DNA of 11,283 bases from a virus (taxonomy: Duplodnaviria > Heunggongvirae > Uroviricota > Caudoviricetes): the IMG/VR virus record IMGVR_UViG_2675903654_000023; one strand, written 5' to 3'. The position numbers and the translations under genes were made by a program. The notes below the pieces were generated by a model. The model had not been told where the DNA came from, searched no databases, and saw only the letters and a program-made list of their open reading frames with translations. The first letter of the stretch is position 1. Every line of letters begins with the position of its first letter. Below, piece by piece: positions 1,291-11,283 of the stretch.

Positions 1291-1773
1291 CTATCTGGTC
1301 AGGGTGTCATACTGTTTTTCGCAGACTCTTCCGGCTTCGGCTGCCCGGTCAGCATACTCTGCCAGTTGTCTATTTCTCTCGAGAGATTTGCTGAACACGT
1401 CGGCAAGCAAAACTCCGGTATCTGCGGCTGACGCCCCAGCGCCGACAATGGCGTTATATTGCCTGAGCTGCTCACGGATGGCAACGAGCTGTCGCTGCAA
1501 CCTGCCAGCGCGAGCGGCAGCATCAAGAGCATCACTGCGCGCCTGATCGATTCTCTGCTGCGCTTCACGTTCATTGGTCACTTTCTCCTGTTCGTAGTAC
1601 TGACGAACTTTGTCTTCTTCGGCTTTGCGGTCTTCTTCCGCCTGCGCATACCCGGCATCGTACTGGCGGCTGCCGTGTATATTCCAGGCAACCACTCCGA
1701 CGATGAACAGAGCAGCAAGCATCAACACGATAAGCAGCTGTTTCCAATATGATTTTACGAATGTCAGGATCAT
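1291..1773 (-). CDS. Rz-like i-spanin (inner-membrane lysis protein)
   Basis: N-terminal transmembrane segment ([18 protein letters not shown]) followed by a charged, coiled-coil-like periplasmic domain. Its ATG overlaps the endolysin stop in an ATGA junction at 1770-1773. It is the last gene of the lysis cassette. Confidence 0.75.
1299..1574 (-). CDS. Rz1-like o-spanin lipoprotein embedded in a different frame inside Rz
   Basis: Lies entirely within the Rz gene in another frame. Encodes a signal peptide with lipobox LALAGC and a Pro/Ser-containing mature part. The longest ORF starts at 1574; an internal ATG at 1532 ([12 protein letters not shown]...) is the more likely start. Confidence 0.55.
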   Translation of the reverse strand: MNVKRSRESIRRAVMLLMLPLALAGCSDSSLPSVSSSGNITPLSALGRQPQIPEFCLPTCSANLSREIDNWQSMLTGQPKPEESAKNSMTP

Positions 1774-2399
1774 ACCGTCAGCACCTTACTGGCAGTGATG
1801 TATCGCGCTCGCCGGTCGTCTATGCCGTTCCTGCCACCATTGATAATCAGAGTTACACGAGCAATATCGCCGGTATACTTCATGCAGCCTTTGCCGGAGA
1901 AGAACCACGCCGCGCTACGAGCCGCGTATTCGTCCTGCGCCAGCAGTTCAGGATTCTCCAGCAGGTCAACTTTCAGACCGTTTCCACAGTCACGATAGTT
2001 ATTCAAACCGGTAATCTGGATAAGCCCGCGCCCACGGTAATTCCAGCCATCGCCGGGAGCATTGTTACCCATGCGTTTGCTGTATACCAGATTTGCGATC
2101 GCGCGCTGGCGCTCAAGTGGCAATGGTGGTTCACCAGCACGGCGACCCAGTGCATTAGCCTGCCCCTGAGTGAGACGCCCAGCCCGAACGAAGTTAGCTA
2201 GACCGCTGACACTGTAGTTGAAATTCTCCTGCAACCGGGTGAAACCACCAGACTCATGCCCGACCTGAGCAATAAACATTGCCTGATCTTCGGTTTTGCT
2301 GATACCAAACTCTTTCATCGCAGAAGTTATATGCGAGAACCAGCGTGCGGCCAACGCCTCGCTAATACCAGCAGCTCGCTGGAATTGTTTAATCTCCAT
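1770..2399 (-). CDS. Phage endolysin, glycoside hydrolase family 19 (chitinase-like lysozyme)
   Basis: The protein carries motifs recalled from GH19 phage endolysins ([24 protein letters not shown]). RBS GAGG lies 7 nt upstream of the ATG at 2399. It overlaps the upstream membrane-protein gene by 11 nt and the downstream Rz gene by 4 nt. Confidence 0.85.
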
Positions 2400-2697
2400 G
2401 TTTAGACCTCGTTATTTTAAAAATCTGCACAACGTTACCGCGCGTTTTAATAACCGCAGCAAGCATGACAGCGTTGATAATGACCTCAGATAAATCCACA
2501 GCCATTGGCGTGCGTAACCAGATTGCATAAACGACACGAACAGGAATACTGGCCGCAGCAACAATCAGGAAATAAGCAATCCACCCACCCCATCTTCGGT
2601 GTTGAGATCCGTTACGCTGGAAAGTGACAACGCGAATTGCTATGCCAGTACAAATAACTGCATTGGTGATAATTAAAAAAAGGTCATGCGTTACCAT
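2389..2697 (-). CDS. Holin-like small membrane protein (three predicted transmembrane segments, charged C-terminus)
   Basis: Three hydrophobic segments and a basic C-terminal tail ([19 protein letters not shown]). Sits immediately upstream of the endolysin and overlaps it. A GGAG-type RBS precedes the ATG at 2697. Confidence 0.55.
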
Positions 2698-3097
2698 CGT
2701 CTTTTCTCCCCGGAATTAACTCGCGTGGATTATCGGAACGGTGATAGAGCCATATACCAATACGAACAGCGACAATTGCCGACACGAACGCACCTGCAGA
2801 AAATACAATCCCTTTCTCGAATGAGTCCTGCGTGATGGTTGGAATCAGGCTAGCTATGCCGATAAGAATTGATGCTGCCGGTTTGTAGAAAAGAAGGCCG
2901 CAGAGAAAGCTGAGCATCGACAGAAGAACACGACGACGGATTGGGTATTCTACTGCAGAGGTAACAAAAATTACCGCACCAGCCAAAGATCCCAAAGCGA
3001 CCTCTGGAGGAACTCCTGCTATCACCGCAGCAAGAGAACTAACGCTAAGCCACTGATTTAATGATTCACTTGTTAGACCAGCAGACATTGCAACCAC
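2684..3097 (-). CDS. Lysis-associated polytopic membrane protein (holin or antiholin candidate)
   Basis: Four to five hydrophobic segments and a charged C-terminus; it is the first gene of the lysis cassette. The longest ORF begins at a GTG (3097-3095); an ATG three codons downstream (3088-3086) has a GGTGG Shine-Dalgarno 5 nt upstream and is the more likely start. Confidence 0.5.
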   Translation of the reverse strand: MVAMSAGLTSESLNQWLSVSSLAAVIAGVPPEVALGSLAGAVIFVTSAVEYPIRRRVLLSMLSFLCGLLFYKPAASILIGIASLIPTITQDSFEKGIVFSAGAFVSAIVAVRIGIWLYHRSDNPRELIPGRKDDGNA

Positions 3098-3191
3098 CGT
3101 TTACTGTTCATGACACCCCCTTAGTTGAGTGGGTATATCATACACAATAAACCGTAAACGGATAATCAACCTAAGATTAGCCCGAACAAAG

Positions 3192-3206
3192 TTACCTTAT
3201 AGGTAA
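3192..3206. promoter_or_regulatory. Palindromic operator-like site TTACC-N5-GGTAA (copy 1 of 4)
   Basis: Seen directly: gTTACCttataGGTAAa. It lies in the AT-rich intergenic island between the lysis cassette (minus strand) and a small plus-strand ORF. Confidence 0.45.
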
Positions 3207-3271
3207 AACTCTTACTGTTGAATGTTAATTTATATAGGTTTCCCTTTCGGATGTTAAAGAGTGGGAATCGC

Positions 3272-3442: not shown

Positions 3443-5518
3443 CTATTTATTGGAAAATAAATTCTCAAGCTTGCTAATTCTGGCTTCCAGTTTCTGCCGC
3501 TCTCTCCGCTGATATGCAGCTTCCAGCCAGAGACATTGATCAGCACGAATGCCCCATCGGTTTCCCGCTGGCGTAACCAGCAGCCTGCCCTCAGGCTTTA
3601 CAATCTCTGTCCAGGCTTCTTTCTTGACGATTTGCTGCATTGATACATCCAAAATAGAAGAATACTCGGCAGGATGCTCAACCACTTCCTCAGGGATAAT
3701 CTCGTACTGGTCTTGCCATTCATCGTAACAGAGCAGGCCAAATCGAGTCCCGTCGATTCCTTTCGACTCGAATGCCTCTTTAACCTGTTGTGCAATAACG
3801 CCAAAATGCCAACGTGCGCCAGCCTGCCCCTTTTCTTTAATAGAATTCAGCCACTGAAAAGCGATTATTGAAACTTCCCCCCACGCGTCAAGTATTGCAT
3901 TTTCATCAACAGCCATGAATTTCGATAGCTCTGATACTTTAATCGGCTGTGATTTTTCACGGCCGTCTGAAGTATTAATTGAACCAGTGCCTGCAAAAAC
4001 GGTGCTCCAGCGGTTTACGATATCACCCAAAGGTGTTGAGTTATCATTACCAGGGGTTAACGCGCGCTGGGAGACTGCGGCAGGCTTAATCTGGAGACGC
4101 ACCTCATTTCCGGATACAAATTTTAAACTAGTGTCGCCTGTTGTACCTAAATAAGTCCCGTTTACATCAGTTGTCACAAAGCCGTGAAAGTTACCGGTCG
4201 CCCCGCCGCGCCAGCTTATGGCGTAAGTTAATTGCGACGGATCTATGCCAAATCCTGCAGCGCCATTCTGGAACATCTTGCCAAGGTTCGGAGCATAATA
4301 GCCATAGCCATTCATCTGTCGGACATTTATAGCTACGTTCGCTCCCCGAGCCGCTTTTAAATGCTCAATATAAACGCCGCTTTGTTCACCTACAATGCCA
4401 GTACTTCCAAGCAAAACATCATTGATATATACCCCTCTGCGGTCGAGTATCGTCCCGGTTCCATTATGTGATGGGGATGAATAAAATCCCTGCATGTTTT
4501 CCAGAGTTCCGCTTCCGGCGTAATTAATACGATCTTGAAAGCTGAAAGCGTGATTTTGAGCGTGGCCGCCAGTTATGATTAGCGTTGAATCAAAAGCTCC
4601 ATATCCGCCATAGTCGGAGGCCTGATTAATAACTGTCTTATCTGCGAAGGCGTGGCAGTTCGTTGGCGCGTTATCGATACGACGAGCCACGTTTATGGCG
4701 TCTCTTAGCGAATCAGGCGACGGCCATGTAGCGCCAGCCACGCCGACTGGCTGGTCGCCAACTATAAGATTTCCGTACGTGGTTGAGATGCGTAAACCGC
4801 CTGTCATTGTGTCGCCGCGCTTGTCGACTGCGTTACCTACCCTTTTGACTCCATCAGGCTGAGCCAGGGTTATCAGTACGTCAGAGGCGCTACCGCTTTG
4901 TGGAACAACAGTAATTGGATTTCCTGATGAATCGAAAGCCAATAGCTGATTTGCTCGCATCGACACGCCAGGAACTGGGCCTACATAACTCTCCGGAACC
5001 CGTAGCGTGCGGTTGAAGTTAACGTTGTTAAGCGTATCAACATAATTTTTAGTGGCTGCATCTTGGGGGGTTGAAGGATCGCGTAAGTTTCTGATGTAAT
5101 TGTTAAGCGCATCATAATAATTTGCCACGAATGACGGCTTACGCAGCGCCAAGCTAAACCAACTTCGAACCTGCTGGATCAGCATCGTTAGCTTATCAAA
5201 AGCATCCTCATGCACTTCTGCAAAGAACTTACCCTGATTACGCAAATCAGTTTCCTGCGTAACCGGGAGCTCTCGTGATATAGAAATCTGATAACCGCTA
5301 ACCAATGCCTTCGACAGAATTATATTGCCACCATTGTATCCTCCAGCCCCAGTAACTATGTAATCAGTGTCAAGAATCAGCTCTGTGATGTTCTCGTTCA
5401 GGTCAACAACCTGCACTACTAAATCAGATTTCTGGAAAATCCTGAAGGTATAAGGGAATGTCGTTGTAACACCGTTACCGGTGTATTCGTTGTGGTCAAC
5501 TTCGGTTGAGACCGTCAT
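3443..5518 (-). CDS. Tailspike / tail fibre protein with a C-terminal intramolecular chaperone (peptidase S74-like) domain
   Basis: 691 aa. The N-terminal roughly 120 aa resemble the particle-binding N-domain of podovirus tail fibres/tailspikes (YTGNGVTTTFPYTF...). The central region is Gly/Asn/Thr-rich, consistent with a beta-helix receptor-binding or depolymerase domain. The C-terminal roughly 175 aa start with an S-D-x-R-x-K motif (SDGREK, about residue 517, nt about 3968-3970), the hallmark of self-cleaving chaperone domains. RBS GGAG lies 7 nt upstream of the ATG at 5518. Confidence 0.85.
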   Translation of the reverse strand: MTVSTEVDHNEYTGNGVTTTFPYTFRIFQKSDLVVQVVDLNENITELILDTDYIVTGAGGYNGGNIILSKALVSGYQISISRELPVTQETDLRNQGKFFAEVHEDAFDKLTMLIQQVRSWFSLALRKPSFVANYYDALNNYIRNLRDPSTPQDAATKNYVDTLNNVNFNRTLRVPESYVGPVPGVSMRANQLLAFDSSGNPITVVPQSGSASDVLITLAQPDGVKRVGNAVDKRGDTMTGGLRISTTYGNLIVGDQPVGVAGATWPSPDSLRDAINVARRIDNAPTNCHAFADKTVINQASDYGGYGAFDSTLIITGGHAQNHAFSFQDRINYAGSGTLENMQGFYSSPSHNGTGTILDRRGVYINDVLLGSTGIVGEQSGVYIEHLKAARGANVAINVRQMNGYGYYAPNLGKMFQNGAAGFGIDPSQLTYAISWRGGATGNFHGFVTTDVNGTYLGTTGDTSLKFVSGNEVRLQIKPAAVSQRALTPGNDNSTPLGDIVNRWSTVFAGTGSINTSDGREKSQPIKVSELSKFMAVDENAILDAWGEVSIIAFQWLNSIKEKGQAGARWHFGVIAQQVKEAFESKGIDGTRFGLLCYDEWQDQYEIIPEEVVEHPAEYSSILDVSMQQIVKKEAWTEIVKPEGRLLVTPAGNRWGIRADQCLWLEAAYQRRERQKLEARISKLENLFSNK

Positions 5519-5674
5519 GTTAAATCTCCGGATAGTCGCAGCACCCGTTGCGCCGCATATCCGGTTATTCTATTACCTGAAAAACCACATATGGATATAT
5601 AACCCATAAATACGAACAGATATTACCTTTCAGGTGATTCGCAAAACGTGCTGGATAGCAAACAAATTATTTGA

Positions 5675-5694
5675 TACTGTATATTTATACAGTT
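5675..5694. promoter_or_regulatory. LexA (SOS) box
   Basis: Seen directly: TACTGTATATTTATACAGTT, matching the CTGT-N8-ACAG LexA consensus (TACTGTATATATATACAGTA) at 18 of 20 positions. It ends 19 nt upstream of the ATG at 5714. A possible -35 (TTGATA, 5671-5676) abuts it. Confidence 0.7.
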
Positions 5695-5713
5695 ATTGCA
5701 TGGAGAAGATAAG

Positions 5714-5971
5714 ATGCAGCAGTATCACTATCCACTGGAAGACGGATTTACCGAAAGGATTCACACGCCGGGAGGCGTCAGGTCACTGGTGGAGGGATCG
5801 CACTTGATGAAATTACTCCGGGATCTCGATAAGGATGGATTTAATGTCGATGGCCCACTTGCCGAACTGACTGCACTGATTAACTACGTCACCAGCTCAC
5901 AGATGTCTATGCGGGATCTGCAAACACATCTCGACTATTGTGCCGAACAATTACGAAAACAAACCAGATAA
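5714..5971 (+). CDS. Small stand-alone antirepressor C-domain protein (85 aa), probably SOS-controlled
   Basis: RBS GGAG (5702-5705) precedes the ATG at 5714. The protein aligns without gaps over about 72 residues with the shared C-terminal domain of the two larger antirepressor-like proteins, at roughly 45-50% identity by eye (IHTPGGV...LMKLL...DG..V.G..AELT...RDLQTH..Y). The LexA box lies immediately upstream. Confidence 0.6.
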   Translation: MQQYHYPLEDGFTERIHTPGGVRSLVEGSHLMKLLRDLDKDGFNVDGPLAELTALINYVTSSQMSMRDLQTHLDYCAEQLRKQTR

Positions 5972-5974
5972 GGT

Positions 5975-6003
5975 TTGCAATTACCAAGTGGAGTGCTTAT
6001 ATT
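5975..6003 (+). promoter_or_regulatory. Sigma70-type promoter of the plus-arm sRNA-like element
   Basis: Seen directly: -35 TTGCAA (5975-5980), 17-nt spacer, -10 TATATT (5998-6003). It begins 4 nt after the stop codon of the 85-aa gene. Confidence 0.5.
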
Positions 6004-6017
6004 TACCTTTGCGGTAA
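6003..6017. promoter_or_regulatory. Palindromic operator-like site TTACC-N5-GGTAA (copy 2 of 4), overlapping the -10/+1 of the sRNA promoter
   Basis: Seen directly: ATTTACCtttgcGGTAAAT, an extended 7-5-7 palindrome. Confidence 0.5.
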
Positions 6018-6130
6018 ATTTACATCGCACTCCTCTTGTGCCATAGTAATCGGGCACTGGCAAAATCCAGTGCCGGGATTGGCGTCCCGGATTACTACAG
6101 AGGCACATATGCCGCATAAGCGGTTTTTTT
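6010..6130 (+). ncRNA. Candidate structured small RNA / terminated leader (plus arm)
   Basis: Bounded by the promoter above and an intrinsic terminator (GCCGC-ATAA-GCGG followed by seven T, about 6111-6130). The core (about 6004-6097) is more than 95% identical to the inverted copy at 8993-9086. It contains stable hairpins (GGCACTGG-CAAAAT-CCAGTGCC and CCGGGA-TTGGCG-TCCCGG). No conserved ORF spans it. Confidence 0.5.
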
Positions 6131-6225
6131 ATGTGTAAAACGCACCTATTCTATGGTGGGCTGTGTGGGGGCACCGAAAGGTGCGCCGGGTCCTTTGTAG
6201 CCGGTTACGCCAACTCTGCACAGTT

Positions 6226-6256
6226 CACCACCAACCGATTGGCGTCGGTAGTGGTG
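6226..6256 (+). promoter_or_regulatory. Leader hairpin upstream of the Bro-N antirepressor RBS, loop UUGGCG
   Basis: Seen directly: CACCACC-A-ACCGA-TTGGCG-TCGGT-A-GTGGTG. The loop is identical to the hairpin-2 loop of the plus-arm sRNA element. The hairpin ends about 27 nt before the ATG at 6284. Confidence 0.45.
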
Positions 6257-6283
6257 ATTAACCTAACTACAAAGGTGATCACT

Positions 6284-6970
6284 ATGACTGCTAACGTAAC
6301 CCCATCTGTTTTTCATTTTGAATCAGAAGCAACCATTCGAGCCATTGTTATTGATGGAAATCCTTGGTTTGTTGCCAAAGACGTTATTAAAGCTCTTCAA
6401 CTGACAAACCCCACTATGTCAATAAAATCTCTTGATGATGATGAAAGGGCTAAATTTAACTTAGGCCGTCAAGGCGAAACCAATATTATCAACGAGTCAG
6501 GCCTCTACACACTGATCCTCCGCTGCCGCGACGCAGTGACACCAGGCACTATCCCCTACCGCTTTCGTAAATGGGTTACAGGTGAGGTTCTTCCTCAGAT
6601 CCGCCGCACCGGAAGTTACATTAAAAACTCGCTCCCGCAGGAAGAACGCATAAAGATGGTTGCCGACCAGGTAGCCAACGCCACGGCGTCAGCAGTGATG
6701 AAGGCGATGAAGATAGAGAACAAAACCTACAGCGCCCCGCTGAAGCCAGGCTACCGCAGCCTGATTCACTCGCCGTCTGGTGTTCTCGGCCTGACGGAGA
6801 ACTCACTGCTGATGAATCTGCTGAACCAGTTACAGGAAGACGGGCACGACGTATCGGGCGCGGCGGCGGAGCTGACCACCATGTTCTGCTACATCGTCGG
6901 TGTGAGCAAATGCCTGCGTGATATCCAGACGCACGCGGAGTACATCAACGACAAGGCTGGGTTCTTCTGA
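6284..6970 (+). CDS. Antirepressor-like protein: N-terminal Bro-N domain plus shared C-terminal domain
   Basis: Internal ATG of track ORF 6131-6970, with RBS AGGTGA 5 nt upstream. The N-terminus has Bro-N motifs (IRAIVIDGNPWFVAKDV...GLYTLILRCR...FRKWVTGEVLPQIRRTG). The C-terminal roughly 80 aa are identical to those of the convergent gene at 8144-8800. Confidence 0.8.
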   Translation: MTANVTPSVFHFESEATIRAIVIDGNPWFVAKDVIKALQLTNPTMSIKSLDDDERAKFNLGRQGETNIINESGLYTLILRCRDAVTPGTIPYRFRKWVTGEVLPQIRRTGSYIKNSLPQEERIKMVADQVANATASAVMKAMKIENKTYSAPLKPGYRSLIHSPSGVLGLTENSLLMNLLNQLQEDGHDVSGAAAELTTMFCYIVGVSKCLRDIQTHAEYINDKAGFF

Positions 6971-6993
6971 CGGGCGGCGGCACAGGGATGTGC
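6730..6993. repeat. Inner inverted repeat, left arm (partner 8121-8385)
   Basis: Seen directly by reverse-complement comparison. About 230 bp (6763-6993) are near-identical to the reverse complement of 8121-8352, with one mismatch noticed. Identity drops to roughly 90% over the preceding 30 bp and is then lost. It covers the shared C-domain coding sequence plus a 3' hairpin (GGCACAGGGATGTGCC). Confidence 0.85.
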
Positions 6994-7042
6994 CTTTAAA
7001 TAATTCTGTACAGATTGCAGACTGTGGGTGAATAGCGTACTA

Positions 7043-7057
7043 TTACCTCAAGGGTAA
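7043..7057. promoter_or_regulatory. Palindromic operator-like site TTACC-N5-GGTAA (copy 3 of 4), upstream of the central module
   Basis: Seen directly: aTTACCtcaagGGTAAa. It is followed by a second inverted repeat (ACGGATT-N14-AATCCGT, 7059-7086) that overlaps a candidate promoter. Confidence 0.45.
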
Positions 7058-7063
7058 ACGGAT

Positions 7064-7093
7064 TGGTTTCATTTTTATTAATCCGTGTAATGA
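7064..7093 (+). promoter_or_regulatory. Candidate promoter of the central two-gene module
   Basis: Possible -35 TTGGTT (7064-7069), 18-nt spacer, -10 TAATGA (7088-7093). This is a weak call from reading the sequence only. Confidence 0.3.
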
Positions 7094-7117
7094 ACTTATG
7101 AGATATGAGGTAATGTC

Positions 7118-7297
7118 ATGCGAAACGAAAAATTGCAGATGCGTAGAGCGCAAGCTGCCGCAAGACGTTCTTTCAATGGAAGCGTAGAGTACGTAAAAGT
7201 TACTATGACAAAAGATCACGCAAGTCGCGTATCCCGCGCTTTCTTTGATTCTCGTAACAATAAGGAAAATTATGAGTTCGTCTGCGTCGCAGAATGA
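7118..7297 (+). CDS. Small basic protein (59 aa), candidate antitoxin or regulator of the central module
   Basis: Absent from the ORF track, presumably below its length cut-off; hand-translated as MRNEKLQMRRAQAAARRSFNGSVEYVKVTMTKDHASRVSRAFFDSRNNKENYEFVCVAE. Strong RBS GAGG 7 nt upstream of the ATG at 7118. Its 3' end overlaps the start of the next gene by 26 nt in a different frame. Confidence 0.45.
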   Translation: MRNEKLQMRRAQAAARRSFNGSVEYVKVTMTKDHASRVSRAFFDSRNNKENYEFVCVAE

Positions 7298-7817
7298 TAA
7301 AAATCAAGTTGTCAGATATAAGGGTCGAGTGTTGCATACGCAAAATTTCTCGGCCCTTTGTGCATCTGATCTTGAGCTGAAGAAAGTATCTGATGCCTTT
7401 ACCCAGTATTGGAAAACGGGATACCATCCATCTCTTGGTAAAGATGCTGCATTTGCTCGTCCGACAGAAATGCTTAAACTAAATGTCAGGCATACTCATG
7501 TCGATAACCAAGACTATATTCCAGAAGATAGTGATAAAAAACACACTGGTAAAAAATCATCTTGGGATGCATGGAAAAATATAGCGTCTGTACAAGTAAA
7601 ATGCATACCAACAAGTGATTGCTTTTTAGTTTATTCGGTAAATCACAATCGTGATGCGCTGGTTATGTTTTTTGTTGACGCAGATGCTCACAACATAACT
7701 GAGCAAGAAGAGTTTAAAGAGGAAGCAATCACTATCAGTTATCAATTCTTTGAGAAAACAAAAACAGAACCAATGCCTTTAGAAGAAGATCTTTTTTCTG
7801 ATAAATGGAAGGAATAG
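7272..7817 (+). CDS. Hypothetical protein (181 aa), candidate toxin; weak YafO-like resemblance
   Basis: Internal ATG of track ORF 7245-7817, with RBS AAGGA 5 nt upstream. AT-rich coding sequence. Segments (GKDAAF...LNVRHTHV...CFLVYSV...ALVMFFVDADAH) resemble motifs I recall from YafO-family toxins; this is from memory and unverified. An intrinsic terminator follows directly. Confidence 0.55.
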   Translation: MSSSASQNDKNQVVRYKGRVLHTQNFSALCASDLELKKVSDAFTQYWKTGYHPSLGKDAAFARPTEMLKLNVRHTHVDNQDYIPEDSDKKHTGKKSSWDAWKNIASVQVKCIPTSDCFLVYSVNHNRDALVMFFVDADAHNITEQEEFKEEAITISYQFFEKTKTEPMPLEEDLFSDKWKE

Positions 7818-7837
7818 CCCGCAGCGCGGGCTTTTTT
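7817..7837 (+). terminator. Intrinsic terminator of the central module
   Basis: Seen directly: stem GCCCGC (7817-7822), loop AGC, stem GCGGGC (7826-7831), then six T (7832-7837). It overlaps the stop codon. Confidence 0.7.
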
Positions 7838-7909: not shown

Positions 7910-8071
7910 ATGAAAAAAGCATTTGCTGCACTGTTCGTTTTGTTGTCTCTGGTAGCTTCAACTCAGGCCTTTGCCGGTCGTTGTCAGCACGACAGCGATA
8001 CTGCCGCTGACGGCTCCCGCTGCGGTGGGCGTTCTGCGGATTCCCGCCCGGGCGGCGGTGGCATTCGTTAA
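7910..8071 (+). CDS. Hypothetical small secreted peptide (53 aa precursor, about 31 aa mature, two Cys), possibly leaderless
   Basis: Internal ATG of track ORF 7805-8071. Signal peptide MKKAFAALFVLLSLVASTQAFA followed by a Gly/Arg/Asp-rich tail. A candidate promoter (TTGACG 7869-7874, TATAGA 7891-7896) would place the transcript start only a few nt before the ATG. No convincing Shine-Dalgarno. Coding status is uncertain. Confidence 0.3.
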   Translation: MKKAFAALFVLLSLVASTQAFAGRCQHDSDTAADGSRCGGRSADSRPGGGGIR

Positions 8072-8120: not shown

Positions 8121-8385
8121 GCACGTCCCTGTGCCGCCGCCCGTCAGAAGAACCCAGCCTTGTCGTTGATGTACTCCGCGTGCGTCTGGATATCACGCAG
8201 GCATTTGCTCACACCGACGATGTAGCAGAACATGGTGGTCAGCTCCGCCGCCGCGCCCGATACGTCGTGCCCGTCTTCCTGTAACTGGTTCAGCAGATTC
8301 ATCAGCAGTGAGTTCTCCGTCAGGCCGAGAACACCAGACGGCGAGTGAATCAAACTGCGGTAGCCGGGCTTCAGTGGGGCGCTGT
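8121..8385. repeat. Inner inverted repeat, right arm (partner 6730-6993)
   Basis: Reverse complement is near-identical to 6763-6993; see the left-arm entry. Confidence 0.85.
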
Positions 8386-8800
8386 ATTCTTTTTTGTCTT
8401 CCAGCTTGATCGCCTCCATAATGGCGGGCATGAAGCCTGACAAGACCTTCTCCACTTTTGTTTCTTGTTGTCTTAAACGTTTCTCGCATTCAATGAAGTA
8501 GCGTCGTACCTGACGACCTTTTTCGTTACGCTCGACCATCGCCAGCTCTTTGGCTGTATCAAGGGTGAGGTGGTACTCTTTGCGGTTGTGGCCGCCTCTA
8601 CCAGATGTTTGCTTTCCCAAATTGGAAAGCAAAATATAGTCTTGATTTTCAATGAATTCGTATTCTGATATGCGATTTGTAATCCATGCTGCAAACACCT
8701 TTTTAACACCTAAAAAAGCGTGCAGATCGCGGGCATTACAAAGTAGGGCTGTTTCGTTAGATATAGTGCCGTTGAATACGGGGATGAGTTGAGCGTTCAT
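8144..8800 (-). CDS. Antirepressor-like protein: N-terminal AntA-type domain plus shared C-terminal domain
   Basis: The N-terminus matches the AntA/AntB antirepressor N-domain pattern (LIPVFNGT...[10 protein letters not shown]...W...EYEF...[27 protein letters not shown]). The C-terminal roughly 80 aa are identical to those of the 6284-6970 product. RBS GGAG 8 nt upstream of the ATG at 8800. Confidence 0.85.
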
Positions 8801-8828
8801 GATGGCGTCTCCACTTAGCGAATTACAT

Positions 8829-8859
8829 CACCACCGCTGAGACCAATCAGATGGTGGTG
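8829..8859 (-). promoter_or_regulatory. Leader hairpin upstream of the AntA-type antirepressor RBS, loop UUGGUC
   Basis: Minus-strand reading: CACCACC-AT-CTGA-TTGGTC-TCAG-C-GGTGGTG. The loop is identical to the hairpin-2 loop of the minus-arm sRNA element, and the stem differs from the plus-arm leader by compensatory changes. Confidence 0.45.
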
Positions 8860-8958
8860 AACTGAACGGAGTTGGTCTTACCGGCCTAAGTGGTACCGGC
8901 GTCCTTTCGGACCCCCATTCAGCCCACCATAATTCTGGCATGACTGTGCTATACGCAT

Positions 8959-9080
8959 AAAAAAAACCACGTCTGGCGTGGTATGCGCCACTTAGTAATC
9001 CGGGAGACCAATCCCGGCACTGGATTTTGCCAGTGCATGATTACTATGGCACAAGAGGAGTGCGATGTAAATTTACCGCA
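8959..9080 (-). ncRNA. Candidate structured small RNA / terminated leader (minus arm)
   Basis: Inverted copy of the 6010-6130 element. Its own intrinsic terminator on the minus strand is ACCACG-CCAGA-CGTGGT followed by eight T (plus coordinates about 8959-8982), different in sequence from the plus-arm terminator. Hairpin-2 reads CCGGGA-TTGGTC-TCCCGG. Confidence 0.5.
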
Positions 9081-9087
9081 AAGGTAA
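9073..9087. promoter_or_regulatory. Palindromic operator-like site TTACC-N5-GGTAA (copy 4 of 4), overlapping the -10/+1 of the minus-arm sRNA promoter
   Basis: Seen directly: TTTACCgcaaaGGTAA. It is part of the outer inverted repeat. Confidence 0.5.
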
Positions 9088-9116
9088 TGATAAGCGCTAA
9101 GAAATATTAAAATCAA
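9087..9116 (-). promoter_or_regulatory. Sigma70-type promoter of the minus-arm sRNA-like element
   Basis: Minus-strand reading: -35 TTGATT (plus 9111-9116), 18-nt spacer, -10 TATCAT (plus 9087-9092). Sequence upstream of the -10 is not homologous to the plus-arm promoter, yet a promoter is retained. Confidence 0.45.
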
Positions 9117-9234: not shown

Positions 9235-9582
9235 GTGCCATTCCACGGCGCAGAGCTTTATGTTGTCAATCACAACGGCGAACCGTATACCCCAATGAAA
9301 CCTATCGTTGAGGGAATGGGGCTAGACTGGAAATCTCAACATAAGAAGATTTCTCAACGCTTCTCGAAGGGTATGGTGGAAATCACCATACCTTCTGCCG
9401 GTGGGGTGCAAGCCATGATTTGTATGGCTTTACGAAAATTGGCAGCTTGGTTGAACAGCATCAGCCCTAACAAAGTCCGCCCTGAAATCCGCGAAAGTAT
9501 TGAAACATCAACCGTATCGATATCGACACGGTTGATTATGACGGTAACTTATTTCCGTGTGTCCTATTTCTCCCGCCACTAA
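9235..9582 (+). pseudogene. Probable remnant of an antirepressor N-terminal (P22_AR_N-like) domain gene
   Basis: The track ORF starts at a GTG with no RBS. Residues about 8-85 (LYVVNHNGEPYTPMKPIVEGMGLDWKSQHKKISQRF...LRKLAAWLNSISPNKVRPEIRE) resemble antirepressor N-terminal domains as I recall them. The last roughly 30 residues look like out-of-frame read-through. It ends back-to-back with the convergent 98-aa gene. Confidence 0.35.
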
Positions 9583-9897: not shown

Positions 9898-11283
9898 TTA
9901 CTTCATCACCGGATCCACCTGGTTTATTAGTGGCGCAATCCAGAACAGGTTATTGCCGGGTATCAGGGTTCGGACATTATGCACAATACGATCACCGGCA
10001 TCACCATTCAACACTCCTGCGGTCACATCAATGATGCTATCCGCAAGACCAAATGACGGTCCGAATAGAGATCCTACGAATCCACGACTGGCATACCTAG
10101 ACTGTGTGCCAGTGCCAAATAAAGCCCCCAGCCCAACAGCACCACCAGTAGCCTTTTCAGCCATGTTGTTATATTCCATCAATGGCCCAAGAATACCGGA
10201 TCTATCTATACCCTCAAGCACCAGCTTCTCTGGTGACCAGTCAACATTTTTCCCTTTCGATGCTTCTTTTAGCGCATAGACCAGTGAGCCAAGAGCAATC
10301 TGAAATGCAGTGCCATAATAAAATTGCGCAGTTCCTTCCTGTAACCCACCAAGTAGCGCACGGTTGTATGAAGCCGTTGTGAATGATTTAAACTGAAATA
10401 TCGTTCGCCCCATTGGAGTACTCGCCCATAAAGGTGTGTCACCAATACCGGGGGTGATGATAGTGTTATTAACGTCTTTCAGAACCGCTGACTGGAATAC
10501 TCCGGCAACGTACTGATCGTCCCATTTATCAAAGTTACCAATGTGCCATCCATCAATTACCTCACCATGTTTCTCGAACTCACTGCGAATACGCGCAGCC
10601 ATATTGTCGTTGATACCGAGTTTTGCCATGCGACGTGCAGAAAACGCACCAGACAAAATACCGTCTGACGTGAGCATTCCGTTCATGGATTTGTTTATGT
10701 CATTAAATCGATCCATGAGTGTCAGCTTGCCGAAGGCATCAGTAATTCGCTCCATTCCTGCTTCGACTGCTGTTGTCCTGGAAGAACTGTCAACAAGATC
10801 ACCAATTGCACGAGAACGTGAATGTAGTACAGCTTCCAATCCAATCCCCATCTTCAACATCTCTTCTTTGCTGGCCTTAAATGCCGGTGATTGGGATATC
10901 TGAGAAGCATAGCCTTTCATGGTGTTACGGAAACCATTAACCATAACCCCTCTGGCCAGATCTGGAATAGCTGATACTGTCATTCCACCGAGTTTGGTCG
11001 TGAAGTTCACATCCCGCAGAAAAGCGCCAGCACGAACAAAAAACGAAGACGGATCATCAGGCATACCATATGTACCAACAAGACGATCGCGTAATGCTGT
11101 TATGTCTCTGAGATCATTTGCTCTTGATTTTGAAAGTCTGGACTGTTCTTTCCGTAATTCCTTTTCGTACTTTCGCATTAATGAATCGAGTTTACCCTGA
11201 GGAACAACTTCACCATTGCTCTCATAACGTGCTTTCAGATTTGCCACACTTTCGTCATATTTCGCCTTTATTTTTTCAGGCAC
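9898..11283 (-). CDS. Large phage protein, 5'-truncated by the window edge; probably virion-associated, function unassigned
   Basis: Open reading frame running to the window edge, so the N-terminus lies outside. The sequence read has a charged N-terminal part and a Gly-rich hydrophobic stretch near the C-terminus (GGAVGLGALFGTGT). Its position directly upstream of the accessory module and tailspike on the same strand suggests a late-operon gene. Confidence 0.6.
   Translation of the reverse strand: MPEKIKAKYDESVANLKARYESNGEVVPQGKLDSLMRKYEKELRKEQSRLSKSRANDLRDITALRDRLVGTYGMPDDPSSFFVRAGAFLRDVNFTTKLGGMTVSAIPDLARGVMVNGFRNTMKGYASQISQSPAFKASKEEMLKMGIGLEAVLHSRSRAIGDLVDSSSRTTAVEAGMERITDAFGKLTLMDRFNDINKSMNGMLTSDGILSGAFSARRMAKLGINDNMAARIRSEFEKHGEVIDGWHIGNFDKWDDQYVAGVFQSAVLKDVNNTIITPGIGDTPLWASTPMGRTIFQFKSFTTASYNRALLGGLQEGTAQFYYGTAFQIALGSLVYALKEASKGKNVDWSPEKLVLEGIDRSGILGPLMEYNNMAEKATGGAVGLGALFGTGTQSRYASRGFVGSLFGPSFGLADSIIDVTAGVLNGDAGDRIVHNVRTLIPGNNLFWIAPLINQVDPVMK

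Follow-up and report, generated by a model that had tools for sequence, protein, structure and literature searches.

A probable LexA-gated antirepressor gene of the SPC32H type in a phiV10-like prophage of Escherichia coli

An 11,283-nucleotide stretch of viral DNA (IMG/VR record IMGVR_UViG_2675903654_000023; Caudoviricetes), referred to here as the window, carries a gene for an 85-residue protein directly behind a LexA-type palindrome. The window comes from a phiV10/epsilon15-like (Uetakevirus) prophage of Escherichia coli; its DNA is 92–96% identical to phiV10, TL-2011b, ZX5 and other E. coli Uetakeviruses, and approximately 77–78% identical to epsilon15 and the SPC32H group of Salmonella phages. 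We consider it very probable that the small gene is ant, the SOS-triggered antirepressor of this prophage, gated by LexA and acting on the phage repressor Rep. A preliminary description of the window had proposed that the prophage is induced through an SOS-derepressed antirepressor, rather than through RecA-stimulated cleavage of the repressor. This proposal is now supported by the orthology of the product to the Ant protein of phage SPC32H, by the conservation of the box and by a mutation in the homologous box of phage SPC32N. The central elements are:

5652–5657 (+): candidate −35 element TGGATA of the ant promoter, with a 17-nt spacer to a candidate −10 element, TACTGT, at 5675–5680 inside the LexA box
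5675–5694 (no strand): LexA (SOS) box TACTGTATATTTATACAGTT, identified by consensus match, conservation and the SPC32H/SPC32N difference in the homologous box
5702–5705 (+): Shine–Dalgarno sequence GGAG of ant, read from the sequence 8 nt before the ATG and invariant in the alignment of relatives
5714–5971 (+): ant, a stand-alone 85-residue antirepressor gene orthologous to SPC32H Ant, phiV10p24 and epsilon15 gp19 (PDB, tblastn, phrog_450)

The gene begins with the ATG at 5714 and ends with a stop codon at 5969–5971. Its product matches one sequence in the PDB, chain E of entry 5D50 (‘Anti-repressor protein’; phmmer, E = 1.4 × 10−46), with residues 2–84 aligned to residues 3–85 of the 86-residue chain; this chain is SPC32H Ant, crystallized with its repressor Rep (5D50; 5D4Z is a further entry for the Ant–Rep–LexA switch). 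As measured by tblastn, the identity is 98.8% with phiV10p24, 86.7% with the product of the annotated ant gene in both SPC32H and SPC32N, which infect Salmonella, and 83% with epsilon15 gp19. It falls into phrog_450 (7.2 × 10−48), which is labelled ‘unknown function’, and neither Pfam nor NCBIfam holds a family for it, which explains why the gene is annotated as a ‘hypothetical protein’, the name that it bears throughout among the E. coli records listed. Its only Pfam match, to DUF724, fell below threshold and was set aside as spurious; at E ≤ 0.01 there was no Pfam match to DinI or to any antirepressor family.

The genomic setting agrees with this assignment. The open reading frame map and synteny show a stand-alone gene of approximately 86 codons that diverges from the tailspike gene of an epsilon15-like podophage, and the order is the same in phiV10, SPC32H and epsilon15, in which ant is flanked by the tailspike and virion-protein genes and is transcribed away from the former. 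The gene combines full-length homology to SPC32H Ant, the stand-alone position divergent from the tailspike, and a LexA box that overlaps the presumed promoter. Stand-alone versions of 85–86 residues make up nearly all of the 120 clusters listed and come from at least six genera of Enterobacterales; a scan of genome contigs yielded only seven loci. The box together with ant is found in 529 of 5,426 complete E. coli genomes, almost always at an identity of at least 95%.

The preliminary description had placed a near-consensus SOS box directly in front of the gene, and the box is there. At 5675–5694, TACTGTATATTTATACAGTT agrees in 18 of 20 bases (2 mismatches) with TACTGTATATATATACAGTA, the consensus for LexA of E. 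coli, and has a perfect CTGT-N8-ACAG core; it has the form of an E. coli-type LexA operator, a 20-bp palindrome TACTG(TA)5CAGTA with an invariant CTG-N10-CAG. No other site in the 11.3-kb window comes within three mismatches of the consensus, and none of 200 dinucleotide-preserving shuffles yielded such a site. The looser pattern CTG-N10-CAG occurs three times in the window, at about chance frequency, and only the copy at 5675–5694 has an all-A/T spacer. The box stands 19 nt before the ATG of ant, with the Shine–Dalgarno sequence in between.

We infer that the box overlaps the ant promoter, at a position where scans found no clear −10 and −35 pair. The candidate TGGATA/TACTGT is weak (7 of 12 consensus positions), and its −10 element is the left half of the LexA box. 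The −35 element lies within a block, CTGGATAG, that is invariant in the six non-Klebsiella sequences while the spacer around it varies; Klebsiella phages have CTGGAAAA in its place.

Of 15 relatives, 11 carry CTG-N10-CAG with unchanged spacing to the start codon of ant; these 11 represent seven genera (Escherichia, Salmonella, Citrobacter, Pseudocitrobacter, Scandinavium, Enterobacter and Buttiauxella). Across relatives the CTGT and ACAG half-sites are fixed and the spacer drifts (ATGTTTAT, ATAAACAT, ACATAAAT, TTATTCAT and ATAAGCAT, among others). Fixed half-sites with a varying spacer indicate selection on the LexA contacts, rather than mere recent common descent. In Klebsiella phages, Klebsiella pneumoniae and Superficieibacter, the box reads ATATGTATAT..ATACAGTA, with the left CTG changed to ATG and the right half intact.

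A natural mutation bears on the function of the box. The box of the window aligns column for column with that of SPC32H, and over 6,249 nt the SPC32H and SPC32N records differ at exactly two positions. One is inside the tailspike gene; at the other, TACTGTATGTTTATACAGTG becomes ...ATAAAGTG, turning CAG into AAG in the right half-site of the LexA box. Reportedly, the two phages differ by two nucleotides, one of them in the LexA-box consensus that overlaps the ant promoter, and this change is said to make Ant constitutive; our comparison of the two sequence records matches the two-nucleotide difference.

The proposed target of Ant is encoded outside the window, and we could see rep only in the nearest complete prophage, that of E. 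coli 2015C-4498. There, a 194-residue Rep homologue (E = 3.6 × 10−42 to 5d50_A) contains helix-turn-helix (HTH) domains only; no S24 peptidase domain was found in it, which fits inactivation by binding and not by cleavage. The sites at which Rep may act can be traced through the epsilon15 record, in which the annotated ‘repressor’ sites all read ATTACC-N5-GGTAAT and one lies between the tailspike gene and gp19 (ant). The window contains six sites with at most two mismatches to this motif, compared with 0.35 expected:

2729–2745: ATTACC-N5-GGTAAT-like palindrome inside a gene, probably due to chance
3191–3207 and 7042–7058: ATTACC-N5-GGTAAT-like palindromes (motif match)
5622–5638 (no strand): putative Rep operator ATTACCTTTCAGGTGAT, between the divergent tailspike and ant genes; 1 mismatch
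6002–6018 (no strand): putative Rep operator TTTACCTTTGCGGTAAA, adjoining the −35 element TTTACA (6019–6024) of an isrK-like promoter
9072–9088 (no strand): putative Rep operator, the mirror copy of the preceding site; 1 mismatch; adjoining the −35 element TTTACA of a promoter-like site at 9071–9043

The palindrome at 5622–5638 is 37 nt upstream of the LexA box, is kept in all aligned relatives and has an annotated counterpart at the homologous position in epsilon15; the palindrome at 6002–6018 has counterparts in phiV10 and Tyrion, and the motif also flanks rep in the related E. coli prophage. In the window, the palindromes are promoter-proximal at the lysis, ant and isrK/C4 units (see below) and flank all three antirepressor genes. 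Rep probably acts on all of these promoters, although sequence does not tell repression from activation.

The LexA control and the Ant–Rep mechanism are taken from the SPC32H literature and, by analogy, should hold in this E. coli prophage. A review that cites Kim & Ryu (2013) on SPC32H describes antirepressor synthesis after LexA self-cleavage in several Salmonella prophages, and inhibition of a non-cleaved lytic repressor by protein–protein contact; a further paper includes SPC32H in a list of phages whose lytic cycle is triggered through host LexA. Papers that cite Kim et al. (2016) state that the DNA-binding form of Rep is a tetramer and that its C-terminal CAD domain mediates both tetramerization and Ant binding. 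In the lysogen, host LexA would thus occupy 5675–5694, overlapping the promoter and start region of ant, and keep the gene silent. DNA damage would activate RecA, LexA would cleave itself and ant would be transcribed. Ant would then oligomerize and bind Rep, an HTH protein without a self-cleavage domain that is encoded approximately 29 kb away, and would split the DNA-binding tetramer into dimers, releasing the lytic promoters.

Two larger genes nearby encode proteins that end in a domain like Ant:

6284–6970 (+): Bro-N::Ant-like antirepressor, 228 residues (Pfam Bro-N, 7.1 × 10−20), with the Ant-like C-terminal domain at 6716–6967
8144–8800 (−): AntA::Ant-like antirepressor, 218 residues (Pfam AntA, 4.2 × 10−26), with the Ant-like C-terminal domain at 8147–8398

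The 85-residue product had been described as essentially only the C-terminal domain that two larger antirepressor-like proteins share, with the same domain fused to two different N-terminal domains. Both points were confirmed: Ant aligns end to end with the last approximately 80 residues of both proteins at 40% identity, and the N-terminal domains are Bro-N and AntA. The C-terminal domain of the Bro-N protein alone matches 5d50_E (E = 1.1 × 10−14) and phrog_450 (4.2 × 10−36). The last 80 residues are identical between the two large proteins and belong to an inverted repeat of 279 nt (6715–6993 and 8121–8399; 96% complementary). In our reading the Bro-N gene starts at 6284, in agreement with the RefSeq annotation of a near-identical prophage. 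The mechanically called frame of 279 codons (6131–6970) is too long and overlaps a C4 RNA at 6149–6235; another frame, 5935–6117 (−), overlaps RNA genes and was likewise rejected.

When 1.84 billion representative proteins were searched exhaustively with a profile, only 60 clusters with the Ant domain emerged, either stand-alone (80–95 residues) or C-terminal behind AntA, Bro-N, Phage_pRha or ORF6N; the fused architectures came from this search, and a word-indexed protein search returned close stand-alone homologues only. In the phage collection, the domain occurs in Uetakevirus-type records only (34–35), and E. coli, Enterobacter and Klebsiella Uetakeviruses have both a stand-alone and a fused copy. 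Judged from these sequences, the Ant domain is a small, portable enterobacterial module, and its fusion to varied N-terminal domains is the usual domain shuffling of phage antirepressors, general to the family and not peculiar to the window. In phiV10 (6885–7564), the Bro-N::Ant-like gene is present in two pieces, p23 and p22, and tblastn likewise returns two pieces; the fused antirepressor appears to be frameshifted in this type phage. In phage ZX5, the Bro-N antirepressor ORF4 has a C-terminal domain that is 100% identical to that of the window. The ZX5 paper reports that overexpression of ORF4 reduced the lysogen count from 10^9 to 10^6 (approximately 1,000-fold) and the repressor transcript by 75%, and that the lysogen is inducible by mitomycin C. 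The small ant gene is ‘hypothetical’ in the ZX5 record and was not considered by the authors.

No LexA box was found at the Bro-N or AntA gene, as the window contains no second LexA-like site, and we reject LexA control of these two genes. Each is instead preceded by an isrK-like leader RNA and a C4 antisense RNA:

6054–6130 (+): isrK-like leader RNA of module 1 with a1/b1 decoy sites (Rfam RF01394, 76.8 bits; gathering score 50), ending in an intrinsic terminator at 6111–6130
6149–6235 (+): C4 antisense RNA of module 1 (Rfam RF01695, 76.2 bits; gathering score 45)
6192–6200 and 6207–6213 (+): C4 loops of module 1, a' CCUUUGUAG and b' ACGCCAA, complementary to 6267–6275 and 6239–6245
6239–6245 and 6267–6275 (+): C4 target sites of module 1, b2 TTGGCGT and a2 CTACAAAGG, with a2 covering the ribosome-binding site of the Bro-N gene
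8960–9036 (−): isrK-like leader RNA of module 2 (Rfam RF01394, 67.7 bits; gathering score 50)
8850–8934 (−): C4 antisense RNA of module 2 (Rfam RF01695, 61.2 bits; gathering score 45), with loops a' CCACUUAG and b' AGACCAA complementary to 8811–8818 and 8840–8846
8840–8846 and 8811–8818 (−): C4 target sites of module 2, b2 TTGGTCT and a2 CTAAGTGG, with a2 covering the ribosome-binding site of the AntA gene

The a1/b1 family itself (RF03163, c4-a1b1) scores 45.1 bits at 6041–6093, just under its gathering score of 46.7, and 37.6 bits in module 2, also under that score. The loops of each C4 RNA are exactly complementary to the sites of their own module only, with no cross-complementarity between modules; pairing was judged by exact loop complementarity, as whole-sequence RNAduplex calculations unfold the C4 stem and their energies were uninformative. 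Both large genes show the arrangement of the immI type of phages P1 and P7, in which C4 loops pair with a2/b2 over the ribosome-binding site and a1/b1 lie upstream. No icd-like leader frame was found between C4 and the antirepressor start (48 nt in module 1 and 49 nt in module 2, without an open reading frame). The two large genes would form a second layer of control, run by P1-immI-like C4 antisense RNA and probably Rep, not by LexA. The fused gene of phiV10, Tyrion and two Klebsiella phages is likewise preceded by an isrK and C4 pair; both the pair and the fused gene are missing from SPC32H and epsilon15.

The modules (5992–6993 and 8121–9098) are mirror images, each with an operator-like palindrome, an isrK-like RNA, a C4 RNA and an antirepressor gene in that order. 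The inverted repeats between them measure 106 nt (93%), 75 nt (73%) and 279 nt (96%), and the N-terminal domains differ. The 1.1-kb segment between inverted repeats could invert.

Several points weigh against the identification of the small gene as the LexA-gated trigger of induction. At this E. coli locus, it is known from sequence alone. A consensus promoter scan called no sigma-70 promoter at the LexA box, and a relaxed scan near it gave candidates of only 7–8 of 12 positions, the best conserved of them with 7. LexA control may be weakened or lost in the Klebsiella/Superficieibacter branch, and gating is perhaps not family-wide. The rep gene of this prophage lies beyond the window and hence was not seen, and E. 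coli Rep has diverged in sequence from Salmonella Rep far more than the two Ant proteins have from each other (the repressors of ZX5 and epsilon15 share 42% identity according to the ZX5 paper), so that Ant–Rep binding in the E. coli prophage is extrapolated. Finally, the protein for which the ZX5 paper demonstrated antirepressor activity is the large Bro-N one; the small gene did not enter those experiments.

The best of the alternatives, which we nonetheless regard as unlikely, is that LexA gates ant but that, in the E. coli lineage, the large Bro-N and AntA proteins are the real inducers and the small Ant does no more than set them off or assist them. Ant could serve them by relieving Rep at the promoters of the large genes, by forming mixed oligomers with their C-terminal domains, or through a1/b1 sites on the ant mRNA that act as a decoy and titrate C4. 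The approximately 1,000-fold reduction in lysogeny by the ZX5 Bro-N protein, whose C-terminal domain is identical, speaks for strong inducers among the large proteins, but SPC32H and epsilon15 lack the fused genes and RNA modules altogether, and in the SPC32H literature the lytic switch is attributed to Ant. With an identity of just 40% between the stand-alone and the fused domain, mixed oligomers are uncertain. The joint occurrence of both kinds in E. coli, Enterobacter and Klebsiella Uetakeviruses favours the alternative. Relief of Rep is consistent with the Rep-operator-like palindromes that adjoin the promoters of both large-gene modules, and the decoy with the transcript structure: no terminator was found from the ant stop to the isrK terminator at 6111–6130, so a LexA-controlled ant transcript would carry the a1/b1 sites at its 3′ end. 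Against this alternative, the fused gene of phiV10 is split into two pieces. In SPC32H and epsilon15, a terminator stands directly 3′ of ant.

It is far less probable still that 5675–5694 is an operator of a phage regulator or a chance AT-rich palindrome instead of a LexA site. Palindromes are frequent in AT-rich intergenic regions, but this one matches the LexA consensus at 18 of 20 positions, a match that none of the 200 shuffles approached within the three-mismatch limit. A different, phage-specific palindrome does lie 37 nt upstream, but its Rep operator motif is clearly distinct from the box. The loss of CTG from one half-site in Klebsiella relatives would suit such a reading; elsewhere only the LexA-critical CTGT and ACAG are kept while the spacer drifts, and the SPC32N mutation strikes the invariant C of CAG. 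The least probable alternative is that the 85-codon frame is a functionless, decayed remnant of a larger antirepressor gene that has lost its N-terminal domain: the frame does correspond only to the C-terminal domain of its neighbours, the island holds other damaged genes (for example, the truncated P22_AR_N frame at 9235–9582) and public records say ‘hypothetical protein’, but stand-alone forms dominate the listed clusters across at least six Enterobacterales genera, the start codon, Shine–Dalgarno sequence and LexA box are conserved, the orthologue was crystallized as an 86-residue chain with Rep, and the locus recurs in the 529 E. coli genomes at an identity of at least 95%.

With ant as the LexA-gated antirepressor, the two layers might also be coupled, although we consider this extension doubtful. 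In such a three-tier circuit, LexA cleavage would free Ant, Ant would clear Rep from the palindromes of the modules and the a1/b1 sites of the ant mRNA would sponge C4. Sponging of C4 would license translation of the Bro-N::Ant-like and AntA::Ant-like proteins, each under a separate C4 specificity. If this is the case, the large antirepressors might make the commitment to induction firm, or inactivate the repressors of other prophages in the same cell.

Among known systems, SPC32H (Kim & Ryu 2013, J Virol; Kim et al. 2016, PNAS) is the closest. Its Ant is orthologous (approximately 87% identity over the full length) and has the same size, genomic position, LexA box and box-to-start distance, and the repressor of a related E. 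coli prophage is likewise an HTH protein that lacks a cleavage domain. The host here is E. coli, the box of the window is nearer to the consensus (ATAT compared with ATGT in the spacer) and Rep is much more diverged than Ant; unlike SPC32H and epsilon15, this lineage has one or two extra isrK/C4-gated genes with an Ant-like domain downstream.

The preliminary description had likened the strategy to that of Tum of coliphage 186 and of Salmonella prophages. The logic stands: in Tum (Shearwin 1998) and in GfoA/GfhA of the Salmonella Gifsy prophages (Lemire 2011), too, a small LexA-repressed antirepressor binds and inactivates a non-cleavable repressor. The preliminary description missed the genetically and structurally characterized Ant family of SPC32H, the isrK/C4 gating of the two larger genes and the generality of the domain fusions. 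Ant differs in having no Pfam match to an antirepressor or DinI-like family and is an analogue of these proteins, as compared by family scan only. Tum has a DinI-like C-terminal region, and Ant is said to be structurally distinct from the antirepressors of Siphoviridae and Myoviridae.

The immI region of P1 and P7 (c4–icd–ant; Citron & Schuster 1990) resembles the large genes, not the 85-residue gene. Shared features are a C4 RNA above the Rfam gathering score, a1/b1 upstream and a2/b2 downstream with a2 over the ribosome-binding site, two modules with loops that do not cross-react, and a repressor-operator-like site at the promoter. Here, however, no icd-like leader frame was found, and C4 appears to target the ribosome-binding site of the antirepressor itself; the proteins are Bro-N or AntA joined to an SPC32H-Ant-like domain and not P1 Ant1/2, and the two modules stand as mirror images in one prophage. 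The Gifsy-1 module IsrK–orf45–anrP (PMC4825925) similarly places an RNA of the isrK family, which has a terminator of its own, ahead of an antirepressor-type gene, and its short IsrK is described as activating translation of the read-through transcript (Hershko-Shalev 2016); unlike that module, isrK here overlaps the a1/b1 decoy sites of C4. P22 (Ant/Mnt/Arc/sar) is also a podophage with an antirepressor that dedicated regulators silence in the lysogen, and a P22_AR_N fragment lies in the same island, but in P22 ant is dispensable for SOS induction, the c2 repressor is cleaved and the proteins are not homologous to the 85-residue Ant.

The LexA/Ant/Rep switch of the SPC32H type has been published before, and what this phiV10-like prophage of E. 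coli carries is an orthologue of it, not a new system. The core finding adds no new biology, and its practical value is annotation: the locus recurs in those 529 genomes, and the gene is called ‘hypothetical protein’ in the records listed. Recognition of ant predicts that phiV10-like prophages, some of which reside in O157 and other pathogenic strains, are induced by the LexA route and not by repressor cleavage. The layered arrangement around ant is the only moderately new part, and we found no description of it in the literature searched. It offers compact, testable control: three genes share one repressor-binding domain, one gated by LexA and two under heterospecific C4 RNAs, and all three have repressor-operator-like sites nearby.

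The remainder of the window is laid out as follows:

1–1071: host genes yfgH and yfgI (comparison with a complete genome)
1164–1180: attachment (att) core ATTGAGTGGGAATGATT, the same core as published for phiV10, epsilon15 and ZX5
1291–3097 (−): lysis cassette, with Rz at 1291–1773 and Rz1 embedded at 1299–1574
3443–5518 (−): tailspike gene
7245–7817 (+): YafO-like toxin-family gene (Pfam YafO_toxin, 9.1 × 10−6; phrog_1651)
7910–8071 (+): small predicted secreted or membrane protein (MKKAFAALFVLLSLVASTQAFA...; phrog_3117 and phrog_14503, the latter ‘moron, membrane associated protein’)
9235–9582 (+): truncated open reading frame of 115 residues for a P22_AR_N antirepressor N-terminal domain
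9898–11283 (−): virion-protein gene, which closes the window

The host genes and the att core indicate that the window begins at the prophage–host junction. Among complete genomes, the best match, with 99.6% identity over 79% of the window, is E. coli 2015C-4498, in which the same prophage is inserted between yfgI and guaA. Between ant and the virion-protein gene lies an island of regulatory and accessory genes. The YafO-like gene, situated between the two antirepressor modules, is named a type II toxin–antitoxin YafO family toxin in RefSeq relatives and has a terminator directly 3′ (7816–7832); no antitoxin was identified for it, and a 59-residue frame at 7118–7297 has no family match. An opposite-strand terminator (8094–8077) lies near the gene at 7910–8071. 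In the closest complete prophage, the same island holds a 300-residue ‘phage antirepressor N-terminal domain-containing protein’ and an Arc-family gene. The regulatory island is recombinationally variable among strains.

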